DNA of 64,000 nt from Fimicolochytrium jonesii (Eukaryota). The translations under genes and the position numbers were made by a program. A model generated the notes under the pieces. The model made no database searches. It saw only the letters and a program-made list of their open reading frames with translations, and was not told the origin of the DNA. The first letter of the stretch is position 1, and each line of letters opens with the position of its first letter. Location of the stretch: the NCBI RefSeq assembly GCF_025526975.1, contig NW_026515699.1, positions 1 through 64,000 on the forward strand, read 5' to 3'. Positions 2,829 to 57,818 of this stretch are shown here, piece after piece.

Positions 2829-2858
2829 TTAGGGTTAGGGTTAGGGTTAGGGTTAGGG
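2829..2858 (+). repeat. Interstitial telomere-type repeat (TTAGGG)5
   Basis: Five perfect TTAGGG units read directly. Confidence 0.95.
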
Positions 2859-3397
2859 TGTGCACCCCCTCCAATTGAAATCAATATCAGTCACTCACGT
2901 GCATTTGGCTTTGTGGCAGTCGCTGATTTATTTCAGGGGGGTGCACAGCTTTTTGCGACGTGACTGTACTGAAATCAACCGTGAGAGTTCTGTCGACGGC
3001 TTCTCCAGCTTTCTTACGCGGGAGCCCCTAATCTCGTACGAAGCCGCTCGTCTTTGAAGTCAGACGTTCAGTATGTCTAGTATCGTCACGGCTTGCCTGG
3101 GCATTTTGTTTGGCATTGTCTTGACAGACAGCTTGCAGGACCACCATTGGTGGCCCTATCTCAGGCTTCGCTCGGACTCGCTCAGGGGAGACGAACTGTC
3201 TCATGGCGTCATGCAGCGTGCACTGGTACGTTCGAAGAGTTTACGATAGCAGAGGAGTGTGAAGAGAACGTATGAGGAGAACCATTCTCTCCTACGGTTT
3301 ATACCTCTGTTCTTCGACACTATGTCTGGTCAGGTGGAAGAAGATGGATGGTTCCTCAACTCTGCTTGACCCGTAGAGTCATATCGGACAACTTATA

Positions 3398-3826
3398 TTG
3401 ACAAGCGATTTCATCGCTCTTATTTCTCTCTCCTTCTTTTTGGTGTTTACCATTGCGGCCCACACTCAGGCACATTACAAGGCAGGATCCGAAGCCCCTC
3501 CCTACTTCATCTCTGTCATCCTTCTCGTATCCACGACACTGATGGGCGTGCTCGTTCGAGGCATCATCTCGGACAAAATAAATCGTCCGAAGCACTTTCT
3601 CAGTTTCCTAATTTTCCTCGGCGGCACGGGGATCCCCTTCATCACAAAGATCGTACCAGCTGAAGAATGGATGCACAAAAACGGGGCATCGGGCCTTCCT
3701 TCCGAAGTCGCACAGAAACTCCATGAGACCGCTTTCTGGCACATGGTGGTCGGTATCACTACACTGCTGAACATCGCCCTACAGTGTTGCTTTGGATCAA
3801 GGGGCGACAAACGGAAGCTTGACTAA
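3398..3826 (+). CDS. Hypothetical ~4-TM membrane protein (probably a 3' exon or remnant)
   Basis: Open frame with four hydrophobic stretches. No ATG at the start and no family recognised. Confidence 0.35.
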   Translation: MTSDFIALISLSFFLVFTIAAHTQAHYKAGSEAPPYFISVILLVSTTLMGVLVRGIISDKINRPKHFLSFLIFLGGTGIPFITKIVPAEEWMHKNGASGLPSEVAQKLHETAFWHMVVGITTLLNIALQCCFGSRGDKRKLD

Positions 3827-23233: not shown

Positions 23234-23803
23234 TCACTCCTTCTTCCAGAGACGAGCTTCGATGTTGCGGCGTTCAACCAAATGGGCGGGCTCACGAGCT
23301 TCAATATCGCGGCGTGGAACCCGTTCAGCCTTCCAGAGACGTGCTTCGATGTCGCTGCGTTCAACCAAATGGGCGGGCTCACGGGCTTCAATGTCGCGGC
23401 GTGGAACCCGTTCAGCCTTCCAGAGACGTGCTTCGATGTCGCTGCGTTCAACCAAATGGGCGGGCTCACGGGCTTCAATGTCGCGGCGTGGAACCCGTTC
23501 AGCCTTCCAGAGACGTGCTTCGATGTCGCTGCGTTCAACCAAATGGGCGGGCTCACGGGCTTCAATGTCCCGTGGAACCCGTTCGGCCTTCCAGAGACGT
23601 GCTTCGATGTCGCTGCGTTCAACCAAATGGGCGGGCTCACGGGCTTCAATGTCCCGTGGAACCCGTTCAGCCTTCCAGAGACGTGCTTCGATGTCGCTGC
23701 GTTCAACCAAATGGGCGGGCTCACGTGTCTCCAGGACCGGGACGGCGGCGGCGAAGGCGGTGGAGGCGGAGACGAGGAGGAGGATGGCGGATGTGAACTT
23801 CAT
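23234..23803 (-). CDS. Secreted tandem-repeat peptide precursor (KEX2-processed repeat protein-like)
   Basis: Signal peptide MKFTSAILLLVSASTAFAA, then 6x EPAHLVER and 5x LWKAERVPR(R) plus a terminal LWKKE. The units are separated by [L/I]xxR, PR and RR sites. Confidence 0.85.
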   Translation of the reverse strand: MKFTSAILLLVSASTAFAAAVPVLETREPAHLVERSDIEARLWKAERVPRDIEAREPAHLVERSDIEARLWKAERVPRDIEAREPAHLVERSDIEARLWKAERVPRRDIEAREPAHLVERSDIEARLWKAERVPRRDIEAREPAHLVERSDIEARLWKAERVPRRDIEAREPAHLVERRNIEARLWKKE

Positions 23804-23980
23804 GGTTGATGATCTGCTTGTTGAGAGAGGTAGTGTTGGTGTTGTTGCGAGGCGGTTGTTGTTGGTTGATGAGAAGAGGGGATCTGAATGAGGGTGGCCG
23901 GCTTTTATGCCCTTTTTCGGATTGCATGGTAGTTGGCGAAGTCCTTGCCGGCGTACGCGTCGTCGTCGTAGGGGAAGCTA

Positions 23981-24309
23981 CATTGGCGCGTAGGAAAGGA
24001 AAGGAGAGGCCACAGCGGGCGTTGGGAATAGCTAAGGCACCAGCGGTTGTGGGCGCCGGCGGTTCAGGAGTCGCGCATTGTTGCAGACACATTGGCGCGT
24101 AGGAAAGGAAAGGAGAGGCCACAGCGGGCGTTGGGAATAGCTAAGGCACCAGCGGTTGTGGGCGCCGGCGGTTCAGGAGTCGCGCATTGTTGCAGACACA
24201 TTGGCGCGTAGGAAAGGAAAGGAGAGGCCACAGCGGGCGTTGGGAATAGCTAAGGCACCAGCGGTTGTGGGCGCCGGCGGTTCAGGAGTCGCGCATTGTT
24301 GCAGACACA
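23981..24309. repeat. Three identical-looking 109-bp tandem repeats
   Basis: A unit starting CATTGGCGCGTAGGAAAGG recurs at 23981, 24090 and 24199. Confidence 0.95.
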
Positions 24310-34652: not shown

Positions 34653-35518
34653 ATGGACATCGCACCCCGTCAAATCCGACGCCCCAGACCGGCTGCTGCC
34701 CCGGCAACCACCACCACCTCCACCAGCACACCCCCATCGCCACCCAACCCGATGCGCATTGCGATCGCGCACAAGCAAACCCCCGTGGAAAAGATCCGCA
34801 AACGCTACCCCGGCGGGTGCACGATTGTCGATGTGACGTCCAAGGCGGAGATGCCGTGGCGGAAACTATCGCCGTTCTGGCCGCATGGGGGGTTTGAGGT
34901 GCCCACTGAGAAGGGGAGGGTGGGTGAGAGTGTTGAGGGTGTCTGGTGAGTTGTATTCGTAGTAGTCAAATCACACACTCTCCCATTTTTTTTCCTTCCG
35001 CAAACTGACTCTCACCCCCATCCCATCCCATCCCAACGCACGCTACGTGTACTGTAGGCAAGGCCTCAAAGTATTCACCAACGAAGGCCCCGACACCTCC
35101 CGCCTCCACATCACCGACCTCACCAACCTCAAACGCGGCCGTTCCGCACGCCGTGGAGACGTCCTCGGGCACGCTCTCACCTTCGCTCCCCCTGCCTCCG
35201 AGAGTCCACCCCTCATGGACTACGTCACAGCGCGAAAACGTGTATACCTCCCCCTGTACGCACAACAACTAGCGCGTGTGGATGAGGAAGTGGAGGAGTT
35301 GAGGCGGCTGAGTATGGAAGGGACGCTGGTGTTGTTGGATTTCGGGACGAATGGGACGGTGGAGGATTTGAGCAAGCCGTTGAGTCATGCTGCTTTGGTG
35401 GGTGCGGGGGTGTTGCGGACCGATTTTTGGTTCATATAAGACAGACTCATTCTTGTCACCTTCTTTCGATATTCAGATCAAAGCGTTCTTGGAGGATAGG
35501 TATCCCGCGTGCGAGTGA
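34653..35518 (+). CDS. DUF6939-like protein (bacterial-type family), 3 exons
   Basis: Motifs IVDVTSKA..PWRKLSPFWPHGG, SVEGVW|QGLKVF, DYVTARKRVYLPLY and LVLLDF.TNG.VEDLSKPLSHAAL|IKAFLE. Introns 34946-35057 and 35398-35476 restore the frame. Confidence 0.75.
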
Positions 35519-35910: not shown

Positions 35911-37165
35911 ATGCTCCACTCCCACTCCCACTCCCACTCCCACCACAACCCACTACTGCTCCCTCCACAACAACAACCACCACCACCGCACTCCCCCTCT
36001 CCTCCTCCCCCTGCTCCTTCCAACCCCGATAAAGAACAAGCAGCAGCAACGAAAATACAAGCCGCTTTCCGCTCCCACCGCACAAACAAAGCACTCGCCT
36101 CCCTCGCCGCATCCCCCTCCCAACTCTGGTCAACCGCCCTGCAAAACGCCCGCATCGCCCTCTTGCACGAACACAACGCTACTTGGACCGCCGCCCAAAC
36201 CCTCCCTTCAGCCCCAAACTCACCAACAACAACAACAACGCGAGCCATATGGAAACGCGGTGCACTCCTCACATCCATCCTCGGCAAGGGCTCAGCTGGA
36301 ATATCCAGTGACAAGTCACTTACCTTACTCACCGAGCACTGGTTGGAGAGTTCAGATGGCTTGCATCGGTATGGGAGTAACTTGAAGCCGTACCATGAGT
36401 TGTGGGTGCAAAGCGGGACCCCACAGCCGTTTTTCTATTGGTTGGATCATGGGGACGGCCGTGACGTGGATTTGGAACGCGAAGGGAGGAGTAGGGAGAG
36501 GTTGATGAAGGAAAGAGTGAGGTATTTGGATGAGGTCGAGAGGAGGGCTTATGAGGTAACGTGTGGTGGACGACCGACCGCGACGACACCCTTTTCATTT
36601 TCTCTTCGCGACTTTTGAATCAATGTTACTATAGGTGACAGTAAACGACGGTCTACTCATCTACAAAGAAAGCGGCGACCCCGTCCACACCCTCCCTCCC
36701 ACCACCACCTCCTCCTCCTCGGGCGATATCCTCCCGGACTCGGACCCCAACGACACGGAAGAAGAGCGCCTGCGCAAAAAACGCCTCCGCAACGCCTACA
36801 AACACATCTACATCCTCTCCCCGACGTCCCAACTCTACATCGCCCGCAAACAAAAGGGCCAGTTCCACCATTCCTCGTTTTTGAACGGGGGCACCGTGTG
36901 TGCCGCGGGCGGCATCGTTGTTGACAGGGGCAGGTTGAGGAAGATCAATACAAAGAGCGGACATTATCGCCCCGGGAAGATTAACGTGGGTGAGGTCGTG
37001 GGCGTCTTGACCGGGTGGGGGGTCAACATGGAGGGCGTTGTTGTCAGTAATCCGTTTGATCAGGAGGGGGATGGTGATAATGGCCATGGCCATGATAGTC
37101 CGTCTGTTGCCGGTGTGAGTCCGACGAGGGAGGAGGGGGACGGGATTGAGGGGCTTTGTATATAG
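35911..37165 (+). CDS. IQ-motif calmodulin-binding protein (IQM-like)
   Basis: IQ motif AATKIQAAFRSHRT, plus HWLE..D..HRYGSNL, QPFFYWLD.GDG and GQFHHSSFLNGG...SGHYRP. Intron 36556-36634. Confidence 0.85.
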
Positions 37166-38312
37166 GTTGTGGGCGCATAATTCTACTCCTGACGCAATAG
37201 ACAGACAGCTAGACATTGCCCGCAAACAAAAGGGCCAGTTCCACCATTCCTCGTTTTTGAACGGGGGCACCGTGTGTGCCGCGGGCGGCATCGTTGTTGA
37301 CAACGGCAGGTTGAGGAAGATCAATACAAAGAGGGGACATTATCGTCCCGGGAAGATCAATGTCGGCGAGGTCGTGGGCGTCTTGACGGGCTGGGGGGTC
37401 AACATGGAAGGCGTTGTTGTCAGTAATCCCTTTGATGAGGAGGGGGATGGTGATAATCGCCATGGCCATGATAGTCCGTCTGTTGCCGGTGTGAGTCCGA
37501 CGAGGGAGGAGGGGGACAGGATTGACGGGCTTTCTATATAGGTTGTGGGCGCATGATTCTACCCCCGACGCAATTAGACAGACAGCTAGACATCGCCCGC
37601 AAACAAAAGGGCCAGTTCCACCATTCCTCGTTTTTGAACGGGGGCACCGCGTGTGCCGCGGGCGGCATCGTTGTTGACAACGGCAGGTTGAGGAAGATCA
37701 ATACAAAGAGCGGACATTATCGCCTGGGAAAGATGAACGTTGGCGAGGTCGTGGGCGTCTTGACCGGGTGGGGGGTCAGCATGGAGGGCGTTGTTGTCAG
37801 TAATCCGTTTGATTAGGAGGGGGATGGTGATGATGGCCATGGCCATGATAGTCCGTCTGTTGCGGGTGTGAGTCCGACGAGGGAGCAGGGGGACGGGATT
37901 GAGGGGCTTTGTATATAGGTTGTGGGCGCATAATTCTTTTCCCGACGCAATTAGACAGACAGCTAGACATCGCCCGCAAACAAAAGGGCCAGTTCCACCA
38001 TTCCTCGTTCTTGAACGGGGGCATCGTTGTTGACAAGGGCAGGTTGAGGAAGATCAATACAAAGAGCGGACATTATCGCCCGGGAAAGATCAATGTCGGC
38101 GAGGTTGACCGGGTGGGGGGTCAACATGGAGGGCGTTGTTGTCAGTAATCCGTTTGATCAGGAGGGGGATGGTGATGATGGGCATGGCCATGATAGTCCG
38201 TCTATTGCCGGTGTGAGTCCGACAAGGGAGGAGGGGGACGGGATTGAGGGGCTTTGTATATAGGTTGTCGCACATAATTCTACTCCCGATGCAATAGACA
38301 GACAGCTAGACA
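36837..38312 (+). repeat. Four tandem copies (~376 bp) of the IQM 3' coding end plus 3' flank
   Basis: Copies start at 36837, 37213, 37590 and 37967. Later copies carry substitutions, a stop codon and deletions. Confidence 0.95.
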
Positions 38313-50869: not shown

Positions 50870-52131
50870 TTTCGTTTGTCTACGCGCTATCCATGTCCTT
50901 TGTTATTGTCCTGCACAAGGGCAATCATGGCTTCGGGATGGCGTACATATGAAGCCGGAAAGGGGGTTGACTTCCAAACTGAAGTCACACAGAACAAATG
51001 TGTTTTGAACCCTAGGACCCCGAATACATTGGTATACGCGACGTCTATGAGAGTGCATCAGTAACAAGATGCATCCAACGTGGTTGGATTCCGGAGTCAC
51101 CAGATGTGAGCGGCAGAGCGACACTGTACATATATCGCAGCACATCCCGCTAATTAGCGCCGACACCACGGCCAGAAGAACACACCCGAGTCGAATATGC
51201 TCTTCATCCATCAGTCCAAAGCCGGCGCAGCTGTCCATAGAACATGGCAACAAATGCAGGCAACGGCTGTCCAGTCAGGGAAGGAGCATGGCATTCCATG
51301 GCACCCCGCCGGGGCACGACATGTGCAATGAACAGCCGGACTCTATCACGGGAGCATCAGAAATGATTGCGGTGCTAGGCATTCGGTGGGAATGAAGATA
51401 GATCGCAGAAGGGAGCGAAAGAAACAGCCGTGGTTCCTTCCTTCCCGGCTGCTCAGTCACCTCGATTGTTTCTTCCGTCGGACTGGCGTACCCGATAGTC
51501 CCCCCCCCCCCCCCCCCCCCCCCAAATTCTTTGTGTTTGCCCTACCATGCATGTCCTGTCCTGCTGCTCTGGTAACTATTAAAGTAGCCATGCATGCAGT
51601 AGTATAATTTAGTGCGCGTTGGGGAAGCTAGTGAGGGAGACGTGCGGATCAGCAACACGCCAGGCGATGAAGGCCCACACGACACCCCTCTTCGACGCCC
51701 ACAGAGCGCGCCTGGCCGCAGCAAAGCAGAAGGCAGAGGAAGCGCGGGCCTTCACCCCGGCCTCCGACGACGCCGAGGATGACGACGAGGAGTATACGTC
51801 GGTGGAGAGCAGCCTCCCACACTCGGAGTCCGTGTCGTCATACGGATCTACATCTGGTGGCGACGAGACAGCGGGCTCCGAGTTGTGGGAGGAGGAGGAT
51901 TATGCATTTGCGTGAGGGTGAGTTCATCATTGTCTCCGAGACAACTGTCTCCGCCATCTCCACTGCTCCTGACACACGCTCTCTCATCATAGAGCGAATC
52001 GCGAGGCTGCCCCTATTCCGGGCTGTCTCCATCGATCGCGGGAGTTGAGAGCGGAACGTTCCATGAGATCAGAATGCAGAGCGACTACGACGGCGACGGC
52101 GACTGAATTCGATCTGCAGTCTGAGAGGGAG

Positions 52132-53472
52132 TGTTATAAACAACCCGTTTCAGCCACAGCTGCCTTTTAAAGTTACCGTACCCCCCCCTTTTTCTTTTCT
52201 GTGTGTGTGTGTGTGTGTGTGCGCACACCGTCCGATCGAATGTCTATAAAACAAGTGGTGTGTGTGAAAGGGGAATAAAGTAACGAGTTCCACAACACGT
52301 TATCAGCACCATAGACCATTCTACTCTGTGTCCTACTCTAGAGAAAGACCACCTACGCCAAAACCCATTCCACCTACGAGCTAGAGCCAGACCGCCTACG
52401 CCACTACACAAAAAAAAAAAAAAACCCAATCCCACTGGCGAAAAATCTATACATTCTAAAACCACAAAACAAGACGCTTACCCTAAAAATCTGACCATGT
52501 CATCCACCACTAACGCCACTGTTGCCGCCTCCAAATTGAACCATGTAGAAGTCCTTGCTGCCAACGGCGAAAACTACCAAATCTGGAAAGATGAGATTAA
52601 AGCATTCATGGAATGGAATGAACTTCAAACCACTATGCCTCTCGCCTTCAAGGACGAAGACATCAAACTCATCAGAGCGAGAGCCAACACAGTTAACGCA
52701 GCTACTACGCCAAACGCCAGAGAAGCCGCCGCCGCCGCCGCCGCTGCCCTGGAAATCACTCAGATCAATACGCACGACAACGTTGCGGATATATTTACCA
52801 AATCCCTAGATGAAAACAAACACTGGAAGTTTGTTCACGCTCTAGGGTTGCGCCGAAAGGCCGATGTTGCCTGATACAGCGATGCGCTCTTTTCCTACTC
52901 CCAGGATCTATTTTTCCTCACGGAGGTTTTTGCGACTGGGAGAGGTTTTTACCGAGGCATTCACGACTACGACGGCGAAGCGACAACACATCCCATGCCG
53001 GTCGACCTCCCGCAAGCGGCGGTTGTGCTCAGCACTGGAAGCGTCGAGATCAGCGATGGCGGAAGCGATGGCGGAAGTTGATGGCATAAAGTTCAGGGCG
53101 TAACGAATCGCAAGCCCGGCTCCTACTCCGATCTGGACTCAAGCGATCGTGACTTGAAGAGCGAATCGCGAGTCCGGCTCCTACTCCGATCTGGACTCAA
53201 GCGATCGCGGAAGTTGAGAGCGGAACGTTCTATGGGATCATGCAGAGTGACTGCAACGGCGACTGCGGACTGAATTCGATCTGCAGTCTGAGAGGGAGTG
53301 TTGTAAACAACCAGTTTCAGCCACAGCTTCCTTTTTATAGCTACCGTACCCCCCCTTTTTATTCTCTGCAGATAGAGAGCTGGTTGTGTGTGTGGGCAGA
53401 CCGTCCGATCGAATGTCTATAAAACGAGTGGTGTGTGTGTGAAAGGGGAATAAAGTAACGAGTTCCACAACA
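52132..53472 (+). mobile_element. Internally deleted Ty1/copia LTR element (TRIM-like)
   Basis: LTRs TGTT...AACA at 52132-52297 and 53299-53472. PBS-like CGTTATCAGCAC follows LTR1 and PPT GAGAGGGAG precedes LTR2. The ORF has a gag N-terminus and a copia RNase H tail (NVADIFTKSL). Confidence 0.88.
52497..52874 (+). CDS. Copia gag N-terminus fused in frame to the RNase H C-terminal tail
   Basis: LAANGENYQIWKDEIK (gag) joined through a poly-Ala run to INTHDNVADIFTKSLDENKHWKFVHALGL. Confidence 0.75.
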   Translation: MSSTTNATVAASKLNHVEVLAANGENYQIWKDEIKAFMEWNELQTTMPLAFKDEDIKLIRARANTVNAATTPNAREAAAAAAAALEITQINTHDNVADIFTKSLDENKHWKFVHALGLRRKADVA

Positions 53473-53758
53473 CCCACATCCTTTACACGCGTGTAAAAGA
53501 ACGTGGGGATCCCCACTCCACTCTTTGCGCTCCTCACGCTCCTTACTGTACACTGCTTACAGCCTTCACGCTCGGCCTTACCGGAACCCAGCGCAATTGC
53601 GAGCAGATGTGTACTTGCCGACCACCACCAGGTAACAACCGCAATTCCTCACCGTTCTCAGCTTCATTACCACAGCACTGAGTTCTTTGACACACAGCTA
53701 TCAAGGCGATCACCTGCAACACCTGTCTCGGCTGAACTTAAGGCACAGCACAGCCATC

Positions 53759-56700
53759 ATGTCATCACACCAGGCGCTCCAGGGGCACCTGTGGTGTGGC
53801 ATCCTTACCGGAGTAACCACACCACGGCGGAAGAGGAGGAAGGTTACTCCGGTTACCCCGCGGTTGCCCTTTACCCTGCGGTTGCCCATACGTCTGCCAA
53901 CCGCTGTGCAGACACCATTGCAACCCCCGCAATTCGAGTTCCCACCTTCTGTCCAGCGCCACTTGCCCCAAGCAATTGCAGACATGGTTGGCGAGAGCTC
54001 CGGCGATGAAGACGGGCAGCAGCAGCAGCCGCAGCGAGGGCTTTCACCCGTGGACAGGGGTCTGCAGCGCCCACTGAACCTCCCCGCGCCCATCCCTTTC
54101 CTTTTTCCCAGCACACCGGGTGGACCCCTGGTGTATGAACCCCCGCCACCACCACCCCCGCCACCACCACCAGCTCAACGACCCCGCCCGCAGACACACG
54201 CCAGCACGAAGGTTTCCCTTCACTGAATCCAAAATCACAATCAAGTCCAAAGGGAGCGCCTGACAACGTTCATCGCCGATGTTCACGTCCTTGCGCGCCA
54301 CACCACCTTCTTTATCAAGTACTACCTTGGTGAGTTTTTGAGATACACTATACTGTATACTTCCCATTAAACAATGTCCTGACTGCTACATCTGCCCACC
54401 CCATCACAGCTGACCATCCTCTACACGATTTCCCGGACATCACCGACAAGCACATCAGTGTGATGTTTGAGCTGCTCAACAATCCAGGCTACAATGGCAA
54501 TCCGCTCATCGCGCAAGAGTTGCGTCCATGGGTTCAAGACTACTGTAATGTTCACGGATTCGCCCCCATCCGCATGCAAAATTGCCAACAGACCGCAGCG
54601 TACACGGCTACAAGCATCCTCACAAACCTCAAAGTTAACGTACAAGAGCATTTCATGCAAATGTTTCTGCGCTACGTCAATGAAAGGCTTGGTTTGAAGC
54701 AAGTCTAACAGCATCTCCGGAGAGCGCAGCGGCGACACTATTATCGTCGTGTCCGTCAATTTACAAAGTACGCGACGTTTGAAGAGTACCCAACCGAAGA
54801 GGAGCTTGCGCGCCTCACACGACTTGAGCGGACCATCCTCGACGAGTTATGGGCTCTGTTTCCTCCCCGGGATGAGCCGCTTGCGTACAGCCTTGCGGTG
54901 GACGCAATGCCATATTTAGGTGAGCTATGTCCCGTACATTTGCCCCCCCCCCCCCCCCCCCCCTCCAGCTCGTGCGTGACTGCGCAGCGACGCGAGCGAG
55001 CGCCTTGCTTGGTACACCGACCTGGCCAAGTGGCTGCGCGCCGGGACCCGGGCCAACGTGGTCCCCCCCCCGGCCAACAGGAAGCGGAACCCCCCTGCGG
55101 GTTCCTCTTTTATCTAATCATGGTCCGCACCTGCCTCGCCTCATCACAGGTGCCTATTGTGAGCTCTCACGCCTCTATGAGCGCCGTGGAATGCGGCTGT
55201 TTTCCGCTATCCCGCTGCGCAAATCTCGAATCCAGTCATCTGTTCGGATCGACACGGAGATCCTAGGCACTCATATCCTGGGCTTGGGCCAACATCGCAT
55301 GGGGAAACTCACCGATGAACGCAAGCAGGAGCTGTGGGGGCAGTTTCTCAACGTGAATGTAAGTCTCTATCCCTCTGCGCTTATTTCACTCACCTCACCT
55401 CGCTGAATGACGGATTGCAGGACAAGGTCTTCAAGGATCGAAAGAAGCTTGGTCTCAAATTTGATGGGTCAATCAGCACAAACGGGTATTCCGCTACCAT
55501 CCACTTCAAGAAGCCAGGGCTAAAGTACGGCCATCGCGCCCAGAAGCGCAGCAAAGCCCAAATGCAGGAAGAAGTTAAGCAGCTGTATTTTGAGCACCAC
55601 ATCGCCGAACTACGGGAGGCTCCAAACATCGTTAGCATTGATCCGGGCAAGCGTGACCTCTTGCTCTGTCGAGACATCAAGAAGGAGCGGCCATTTCGGT
55701 ACGTTTCAGTTGATTACTACTGCCCTGCTGTCCCCGCCAGCCCCCCGTCTCCGCCCGCCAGCCCCCCGTCTCCACCGCCCAGCCCCCCGTCTCTGCCCCC
55801 CAACCCCCCGTCTCCACCCCCCAGCCCCCCGTCTCCGCCCGCCAGCCCCCCGTCTCCGCCCGCCAGCCCCCCGTCTCCGCCCGCCAGCCCCCCGTATCCG
55901 CCCGCCAGCCCCCCGCCAGCCCCCCGTCTCCGCACCCAGCCCCCCGTCTCCGCCCACCATCCCCCCGTCTCCGCTGCCGCTCCCACCGCCCCTATCCCCA
56001 CCATCCCCATTGCGGCGACATTCCGTTGCAGCGTTCTCACAATGCACCACCCCGTACCAGATACACATCCAATCAACAGGCGGTCGAGACAAAGTCTCGG
56101 TACTTTCAAAGAGACATGAGAGAGCGAAAGATCAATGCCGGCATCGCTGAGATGGAATCACATATTCCATCGCACAAGAGCATGAACATCGAGGCGTTCT
56201 CAGCGTTCATTGTGGATTACGAACATGCGGGTATGATGTATCACGCATCGTCTTCAAATTTGGTAACACATGGGCTGACATCCATCCATATCCCAGATCC
56301 CGCCCTGGATGAGTTTTACCAGGATGAGATTCACGTGGCTCGCAGATTCAAGGCGTTCTCACTGCGGCAAAAGTCCCAGAGCAAGCTCATCAAGAACATG
56401 CGACGCCTGTATGGAAGGCATTTTTCGGTCATCTTGGGTGATTGGAGCGACGCTGGAAAAACCATGCGCTTTCAGGAGTCATCAAAGACCAAAGGGTGAG
56501 TGACTATCATTGGTAATATGTATTACAGTATGTCAACTCATCATGGAAATCAGATTCCGCACACTCTTTGCAAGAAACAGCATTCCATGCTACTTGCTAG
56601 ATGAGTATCGAACGTCCTCCGTGTGCCCCAACTGCCACGGCCGTGTAAAGAAAAACATCCGACAACGGCTGTCATCTCGGCCGTGGCAAGCTAGAAAGGG

Positions 56701-56923
56701 AAGAATGGAATACGTCCATGGATTGGTGGGTTGCCCCAACCCCGAATGTATCAACCAAGACTGGACGCCATTTGAGATTCCTGGAAGACGACGACCACTA
56801 CGACTACGGATGAGAGTGCACAATCGGGACGTCCTGAGCACCAAGAATTTCCTCTCGATTGTGCGTTCGGTGGTGTTTGGCAATGGCCGCAGACCAGACG
56901 CATTCTCCCGTAACCGTAGGTAG
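53759..56923 (+). pseudogene. Fanzor: Fanzor1 (eukaryotic TnpB-family RuvC RNA-guided endonuclease), 7 exons, two premature stops
   Basis: Introns 54330-54409, 54920-55149, 55359-55420, 55699-56060, 56231-56296 and 56496-56553 give a continuous ~768-codon frame. Motifs: FSAIPLRKS..VRIDT, FDGSISTNGYS, RuvC-I SIDPGKRD, ILGDWS, RuvC-II LDEYRTS, CPNC/CPNPEC and RuvC-III NRD. Confidence 0.92.
55731..55975. repeat. 21-bp C-rich minisatellite inside Fanzor intron 4
   Basis: About 10 units of CCGCCCGCCAGCCCCCCGTCT and variants. Confidence 0.9.
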
Positions 56924-57150
56924 TCTAGATTTCACCCCATCCCATTTTCCGTGGTGGTTATCTGCCATCCACATCATTGTACCTCTGCCTGAGGCGTCGC
57001 CGATGATGGCAACTTGTAATTTAGTGCGATGGACGGTGGAATCGGAGGCTCTTCCCGCTGTTTGAGGCGCGCTTTGGCTGTTTCCCGTGCGGTGACACAC
57101 CACCAACGAAGGCCCCGAGAGGCCAACCGCACAAACGGGCAGGCCGCCGC
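56924..57150 (+). ncRNA. Candidate Fanzor omegaRNA scaffold region
   Basis: Lies directly downstream of the Fanzor stop. Stems: CATCATTG/CGATGATG (56972-57008) and CCCGTGCGGT/ACCGCAC..ACGGG (57084-57139) enclosing a GGCC/GGCC hairpin. Confidence 0.4.
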
Positions 57151-57818
57151 AAGAAGCATCTTGGAACCGCATGAACAACAAACACAACACCTTCTTCGAC
57201 TGCTTCCGTCTCTGGCATCTGGCTTCACTCCCCCCACGTCGCTCCGACCACTCGCACGTAAGTATCACTGGACTGCGGTCAACGAGCCTCCCACCAGCAC
57301 CATCCTGTCTGGAGCCCCTGGGAAACGAACGACTGGCGGACCCCTACCAATCTTGTGGGAAACGCTCCTTCTCGCTGTCGGATGCTCAGCGACCGCTAAT
57401 CGGCAACAGTGGCACTGCCGTACGCAGTGTTCTTCTGCCTTTGGTCCCACACTCTAAAGTTTCTCGGGAACATCCAGGCGCCTACTCTTCGGTGGCGTTG
57501 CAAGATGAGCTGCCAGACTACTGGCTGTTTGCGATAGCGGGCGCGACTCACTCTGCCGTAGGCGGTGCCCTACGAAAACGCACAGCAAACTTGCCAAAGC
57601 CGGGGTGATGCCACCTGCCGGGGGTTCTGGGAAGAAGGTCCCGACTGCCGGCCTTTTAGGATGGGACCGATGACCCTGACGCACGCGTGGGAATGGAGCT
57701 CACTACATGACCATAACTACCCGCTCTAATCCTTGCTGGTCAACTCACTCCCTTTATCTGGTTCTGTTTCCACTAGTATCATCCTTACGTACGCTCATAC
57801 TCTTTCCGACGCGCAACT

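Follow-up and report, generated by a model that had tools for sequence, protein, structure and literature searches.

The 64,000-nt stretch of Fimicolochytrium jonesii DNA analyzed here (the window) carries a SpuFz1-like Fanzor1 gene, the reading frame of which is broken in this copy, and directly behind it a non-coding tail. On balance, we favor reading this tail as the omegaRNA of a SpuFz1-type Fanzor1 transposon, with a scaffold of about 190 nt, lying behind a Fanzor1 gene that contains two stops. The locus is described as a decayed SpuFz1-like element with a probable omegaRNA. The original prediction had placed the scaffold and the right end of the element in the tail, and this placement is supported, for the scaffold and probably also for the right end, by a hairpin at 56945-56972 that it had not named, and not by the stems on which it relied.

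The Fanzor1 gene occupies positions 53759-56923 of the plus strand and was modeled as seven exons (53759-54329, 54410-54919, 55150-55358, 55421-55698, 56061-56230, 56297-56495 and 56554-56923) separated by six GT-AG introns, with 768 codons and a TAG stop codon at 56921-56923. Over the REC, WED, RuvC and TNB regions, 277 of 604 aligned residues (46%) are identical to SpuFz1, and the last two exons match the SpuFz1 structure (PDB 8gkh) with E values of 1.2e-29 and 4.2e-26. The RuvC D-E-D triad is intact (D504/E663/D738, corresponding to D383, E541 and D606 of SpuFz1), RuvC-I is of the DPG type (SIDPG) and the glutamate motif, LDEYRTSSVCPNC, stands just before the zinc finger. A low-complexity N-terminal extension of about 140 residues precedes these regions. 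The frame is interrupted at 54224 and 54706 by premature stop codons, which the original prediction did not mention; the paralogue models have residues at both places, and this copy is accordingly a pseudogene. At the level of RNA recognition, the three SpuFz1 residues that contact the 5' UCC are all identical in the model, as are three of the four stem-2 contact residues, among them the readers of U35 and G37, Q482 and K312; considering all named scaffold contacts, 13 of 25 are identical to SpuFz1, near the 46% background. The SpuFz1 TAM residues R96, N133 and R291 are not kept and, consequently, the sequence of the protein makes it likely that its TAM differs from the CATA of SpuFz1. Intron 4 contains a C-rich tandem repeat with a 21-bp unit in about 9-12 copies (55733-55974).

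This copy is one member of a large family. Protein searches and cluster look-ups identified at least 63 Fanzor1 gene models labeled Fimicolochytrium jonesii, a number that is a lower bound because only eight clusters were expanded. Four long paralogue models are 86.6-94.1% identical to the Fanzor1 model, and all five protein motifs tested are present in 3 of the 63. None of these 63 models extends into the tail. Within the 64-kb window no second copy of the tail was detected, an 18-nt match at 35076 lying in an unrelated host exon; a protein search with the minus-strand translation of the tail gave no relatives among 25 candidates, and viral scans for more relatives found none. Contigs from one DNA sequencing run, which says nothing on expression, cover bits of the Fanzor1 gene and none of 56596-57400. 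A single model of the 63 (P0043) joins a tyrosine-recombinase-like region (Phage_integrase, E 5.6e-4) to a Fanzor fragment, the former probably representing an adjacent element.

The evidence that carries our reading is located at the beginning of the tail. The omegaRNA is predicted to begin with a 5' leader, ATTTTCC (56944-56950, plus strand), that shows the T[TA]TCC start of SpuFz1 and PpFz1 and whose TTCC lies 26 nt past the Fanzor1 stop. It is followed by stem-loop 1 (56951-56972, plus strand), in which 7 bp (GTGGTGG/CCA.CCAC, with one bulged T) enclose the loop TTATCTG; the sequence of 56945-56972 is TTTTCC GTGGTGG TTATCTG CCA(T)CCAC. It has been reported that the omegaRNAs of SpuFz1 and of PpFz1 from Parasitella start with T[TA]TCC followed by a 7-bp stem with a TT[AG]TCG loop (PMC10432273, PMC11423790), that stem-loop 1 consists of seven pairs in all three Fz1 structures (PMC11423790), and that in SpuFz1 U5, C6 and C7 together with the loop of stem-loop 1 contact the RuvC and TNB/NUC domain (PMC10432273). 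A descriptor of stem-loop 1 with the loop TT[AG]TCG or TTCACG plus one base has a single match on both strands of the window (128 kb); in shuffled sequence it matched 1 of 3000 versions of the first 400 tail bases and 2 of 30 versions of the entire window. This descriptor is partly post hoc, since one extra loop base and one bulge were allowed after viewing the window, and the shuffle figure is therefore optimistic. Among 14 loci screened, 6 of which provide independent usable tails, the descriptor matches three (L003, L006 and L009), in each case no more than 33 nt from the Fanzor stop, that is, half of the six independent related tails; the copy in L006 was recovered blind, its position not having been inspected beforehand. 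The non-matching loci are L001 and its duplicate L002, with a variant loop, the distant viral relatives L012 and L013, without stem-loop 1, and seven loci without a usable tail. The stems of the window, L003, L006 and L009 differ in sequence and keep their pairing, and in the window the pair probability of stem-loop 1 is 0.65-0.82 in four of five folds and 0.29 in the remaining one. When a covariance model was built from four relatives with the window excluded, stem-loop 1 ranked second of nine hits (E 1.4 over 128 kb), behind one better chance hit, a weak result by itself; rescaled to the 400-nt tail by simple arithmetic, this E value becomes about 0.004. Beyond stem-loop 1, similarity to the relatives is at chance level (207-1605 of 2000 shuffles as good), and when the tail was aligned without an anchor to four related tails, none of the scores was significant (31-282 of 300 shuffles). 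Finding an omegaRNA-like hairpin just behind a Fanzor1 copy makes it likely that the tail encodes a guide RNA, and that an omegaRNA locus begins at stem-loop 1 is a conclusion in which we have high confidence. A second scaffold starting with TTCC at 57052 was also considered and rejected; its pattern appears in only 3 of 2000 shuffles, but the family loop is missing. In L006, stem-loop 1 sits inside the Fanzor coding end and belongs to a candidate very short scaffold of about 55 nt (3190-3244).

At the 3' side, the end of the scaffold is assigned to 57132-57135, with 57134 as best guess, an assignment on which our confidence is evenly balanced. The predicted 5' arm of the terminal stem, TAGTGCG (57022-57028, plus strand), matches the T[AG]GTGCG of SpuFz1 and L009, and the predicted 3' arm, CGCACAA (57128-57134, plus strand), which would also be the right end of the element, aligns with the GGC..ACTA ends of L001, L003 and L009. 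Six of the seven positions pair between the two arms, and GGCCAACCGCACAA ends at 57134; the omegaRNA of SpuFz1 is closed by TGGTGCGG/CCGCACTA (PMC10432273). The pattern T[AG]GTGCG..CGCAC.A, which was written post hoc and allows a free base at 57133, has a single occurrence in the window and is seen in 8 of 5000 shuffles; it is also present in L009, where a TGGTGCG/CGCACTA terminal stem is accompanied by a genuine inverted repeat at the left end. The common region of L001 and L003 ends in GGC-N5-ACTA; this strict family end, shared by L009, is absent from the window, which has GGC-N7-ACAA, with A at 57133 in place of the family form ACTA. A CACTA end at 57026 was ruled out, there being no CACTAAAT in the window. 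In naked folds the 57022/57134 stem has a pair probability of 0.00-0.02, with 57087 preferred as partner, and forcing its register costs about 2 kcal/mol (-69.7 vs -71.8). The preferred alternative partner of ACCGCAC is GTGCGGT (57087-57093, plus strand), the core of the multibranch stem, and the pairing GTGCG(57087)/CGCAC(57128) reaches a probability of 0.79-0.92 in the three longer folds and 0.02 if the fold ends at 57134. Either partner of CGCAC, 57022 or 57087, leads to an end at 57132-57135, which would make 57135-57149 the guide and the outer pairs of the multibranch stem accidental. This predicted 15-nt guide from flanking DNA (plus strand) follows the SpuFz1 geometry (PMC10432273), and its best other match within the window covers 12 of 15 positions. 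The resulting scaffold would probably measure about 190 nt, roughly double the usual length and about twice the 55-109 nt of the candidate scaffolds in related loci, and a GGCC-loop-GGCC hairpin (57111-57124, plus strand) would lie inside its terminal domain. Longer scaffolds are known, namely 150 nt in GtFz1 (PMC11423790) and 229 nt in the RNA given for a Batrachochytrium Fanzor1 (PMC10432273).

The alternative that survives best is a short scaffold that starts at stem-loop 1 and ends at about 57008-57032 (65-89 nt), everything beyond about 57030, the multibranch stem included, being host flank. Such a scaffold, which we consider possible and rather unlikely, might be closed by the hairpin at 56973-57007 or by TTGTAC(56977)/GTGCGA(57029), the latter giving 86 nt. 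In size and in its short linker it agrees with SpuFz1 (75 nt) as well as with L003 and L009 (87-91 nt), CATTGTAC/GTGCGATG is present in the MFE of 56944-57149, constraining the fold costs no more than 1.6 kcal/mol, and the best matches to L001, L003 and L009, all of them non-significant, fall at 57014-57037. However, the end would not be (C/T)TA or CA, unlike those of the relatives, the SpuFz1-like arm pair 57022/57134 with its 8 of 5000 shuffles would be left to chance, and the matching TTGTAATTAGT of L003 is an internal arm and not an end.

A test for inverted repeats detected that of L009 (1 of 200 shuffles) as positive control; between the tail and the upstream 3-9 kb, the same test gave no terminal inverted repeat of the Spu-1 type (about 30 bp, with TA duplication) above shuffles. 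A deleted LTR-retroelement remnant (51991-53473, plus strand), which may have disrupted the left end of the element, is located upstream of the Fanzor1 start, with LTR-like copies at about 52132-52297 and 53299-53472. Its segments 51991-52298 and 53158-53473 agree at 85% over 320 nt, a 3' region plus LTR being duplicated upstream. The short ORF of the remnant is presumably Copia-like, and its DUF4219 match has an E of 0.077 only. In the paralogue model P0068, a peptide matching 52970-53035 precedes the Fanzor start (E 6e-9), and judging from sequence other Fanzor1 copies may share this neighbor. A weak left-end candidate is located at 51605-51622 (plus strand), where TAGTGCGCGTTGG at 51610 is similar to the 57134 end read in reverse complement, an inverted match that is not significant (121 of 200 shuffles as good). 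Between this candidate and the LTR remnant there is an acidic 98-aa ORF (51619-51915), for which no Pfam domain passed the cut-off. A position near 53610, which looks like L003 by eye, was rejected as left end, 35 of 500 shuffles being as good. L009 itself carries (2846-3417) a 570-bp Spu-1-like mini-element whose Fanzor1 content is limited to the 3' part of the gene. Its inverted repeats are short (1 of 200 shuffles), its scaffold folds well (z -3.98), and the genes in its surroundings are intronless and AT-rich.

A 12-bp direct repeat, TAATTTAGTGCG, occurs at 51605-51616 and 57017-57028, at chance level (60 of 1000 shuffles) and in one copy only. Were it a target duplication, its first bases would be the TAM and its last seven the guide seed, the scaffold would end near 57021, and the element would copy itself, with cargo, into cleaved sites. 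This would describe a high-copy, intron-bearing Fanzor1 family that lacks TIRs and spreads by its own RNA-guided cut, an idea that we regard as improbable and that, if true, would account for unclassified MCi-2-type elements.

Folding energy was dropped as evidence. All ten motifs of the stems in the original prediction are indeed present (CATCATTG at 56972, CCTC at 56982, GAGG at 56991, CGATGATG at 57001, GGCTG at 57076, CCCGTGCGGT at 57084, GGCC at 57111 and 57121, ACCGCAC at 57126, ACGGG at 57135 and CAGGCC at 57140), but the tail folds no better than its shuffles. For 56924-57200 the plus strand gives z -0.94 (32 of 200 shuffles equally good) and the minus strand z +0.24; z is -0.59 for the first-hairpin region (49 of 200) and -0.27 for the multibranch piece 57070-57150 (74 of 200), and it ranges from -1.11 to +2.25 when the tail is divided into sixteen 120-nt windows. 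When the first 400 nt of the tail were shuffled, 204 of 300 versions contained a perfect 7-bp stem, and an Rfam scan returned no match at E<=5. Since most of the four candidate scaffolds from related loci do not stand out either (z -0.29, -1.65, -3.98 and -0.31), folding energy argues neither for nor against an omegaRNA. The hairpin with inner CCTC/GAGG that had been named first is the second in the tail (56973-57007, plus strand); the pair probability of its outer stem varies between 0.02 and 0.67 by context, a hairpin occupies the corresponding place in L003, and the hairpin of the window is likely to be an insertion peculiar to its lineage, placed between stem-loop 1 and the terminal stem. 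Together with stem-loop 1 it is framed by a 14-bp inverted repeat (56928-56941/57028-57043; one wobble, a 2-nt bulge), which is the dominant pairing in long folds.

The possibility that the tail holds no functional RNA at all has also to be weighed. In that case it would be a decayed 3' UTR plus intergenic DNA before the downstream gene, which we take from its translation to be coronin-like, and the resemblances would be due to chance or to a dead remnant. The folds within shuffle range, the covariance-model E of 1.4, the broken gene and the extra bases in the loop and stem of stem-loop 1 are compatible with this explanation, which we nevertheless judge very improbable, since the stem-loop 1 match is the only one in the window and lies as far behind the stop as expected. 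Moreover, in the sections covered of PMC10432273, PMC11423790, PMC10530073 and PMC10711439, the characterized Fanzor1s all have such an RNA.

Least probable of all is the full multibranch structure, with a scaffold reaching 57145, closed by GGCTG/CAGGCC, and a guide from 57146, since in spite of being the MFE of isolated 57070-57150 and of a partial pairing of 57076-57086 with 57136-57145 in longer MFEs it has z -0.27, its CCCGT/ACGGG register falls from the MFE of the isolated 81-nt piece to a pair probability of 0.00 in the three longer folds, the related tails end at ACTA, aligned with 57131-57134, and there is no upstream inverted match above chance (121-198 of 200 shuffles). The multibranch stem stands only in part: up to CGCACAA (57134) it would be scaffold, while the pairing with ACGGG.CAGGCC (57135-57145) likely uses guide or flank and would likely not be conserved.

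Returning to the favored 190-nt omegaRNA, a sequence of events can be proposed. The RNA would start at about 56944, and stem-loop 1 would dock on the RuvC/TNB surface as in SpuFz1. TAGTGCG(57022)/CGCACAA(57134) would close the scaffold of about 190 nt, with the extra hairpins accommodated in the linker and in a dispensable distal part. By analogy with SpuFz1, the transcript would be read through the right end and trimmed to the scaffold plus about 15 flank bases (PMC10432273). The host-flank guide at 57135-57149 would then direct Fanzor to the empty insertion site beside the TAM, where cleavage would take place; that cleavage of the empty site favors retention or spread of the element is itself put forward as a hypothesis only (PMC10432273). 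Because the protein encoded in cis is truncated, any activity of the RNA would be exerted only in trans, as for the ghost RNAs of S. punctatus, together with the intact protein of a paralogue, and the RNA itself may be decayed.

Few Fanzor1 omegaRNAs have been mapped, and the tail adds a candidate from a close relative of SpuFz1. The blind recovery of the L006 copy suggests that such RNAs can be recognized across fungal Fanzor1 by the sequence and structure of leader plus stem-loop 1. Since the family comprises at least 63 gene models, its scaffold, guide boundary and TAM should be easy to fix by alignment, and those paralogues that are intact, their TAM likely being a different one, might be of use in editing. 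A scaffold of 190 nt, if true, would show how freely the distal stem grows. The value of the present copy is limited by its pseudogene state. Elsewhere in the window there are four tandem copies of a 377-bp unit (36837-38312, 91% matches), in which the final exon of a host gene is repeated together with the 3' region of that gene, an interstitial TTAGGG array (2829-2859, 5.2 copies) and tandem arrays at 23243-23725 (87 bp) and 23980-24309 (109 bp).

Regarding previous descriptions, the literature covered on Fanzor in Fimicolochytrium or Chytridiomycota has Fanzor in a reference list only (PMC12247965), although these loci may be listed in the supplementary tables of Jiang or Yoon, and eight of the nine supplementary files of Saito leave the genus Fimicolochytrium unnamed (PMC10432273). 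The closest known system is SpuFz1 with its element Spu-1 from Spizellomyces punctatus (PMC10432273, PDB 8GKH), with which the window shares 46% protein identity, the D-E-D triad and zinc-finger region, a TTCC leader and stem-loop 1 in a predicted RNA directly behind the stop, and predicted terminal-stem arms that, compared by eye, agree at 12 of 14 positions. Unlike SpuFz1, which is a single 638-aa ORF, the gene in the window has six introns, about 140 extra N-terminal residues and two premature stops, and unlike Spu-1, with a 30-bp TIR and a 75-nt scaffold, it is associated with no detectable TIR and a predicted scaffold of about 190 nt. Introns in Fanzor1 were already known (PMC10530073, PMC3627910). 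Like the ghost Spu-1 elements (PMC10432273), the window contains a probable omegaRNA locus that has no functional protein of its own and whose RNA could act in trans for paralogues; in those elements, however, the gene is absent and the TIRs are kept, whereas here the gene persists as a pseudogene. The 7-bp stem-loop 1 is common to PpFz1 and GtFz1, the PpFz1 loop TTATCG being nearly that of the window, and in GtFz1 additional stems separate stem-loop 1 from the guide, as proposed here (PMC11423790), although both proteins are more distant (PpFz1, E 4e-9) and the distal RNA sequence is different. The Chlamydomonas elements CRe-1/2/3 are likewise multi-exon, multi-copy Fanzor1s with a conserved 3' non-coding RNA in CRe (PMC3627910, PMC10530073); they are carried by Helitron2, whereas no Helitron ends were identified in the window. 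MCi-2 of Mucor circinelloides also lacks TIRs, and its 11-12 bp duplications beginning ATAATT resemble the 51605/57017 repeat (PMC3627910), which in contrast is a single chance-level case (60 of 1000 shuffles) with no Crypton gene seen. Taken together, these comparisons make it likely, on our analysis, that the RNA of the tail is a further omegaRNA of the known SpuFz1-type system.
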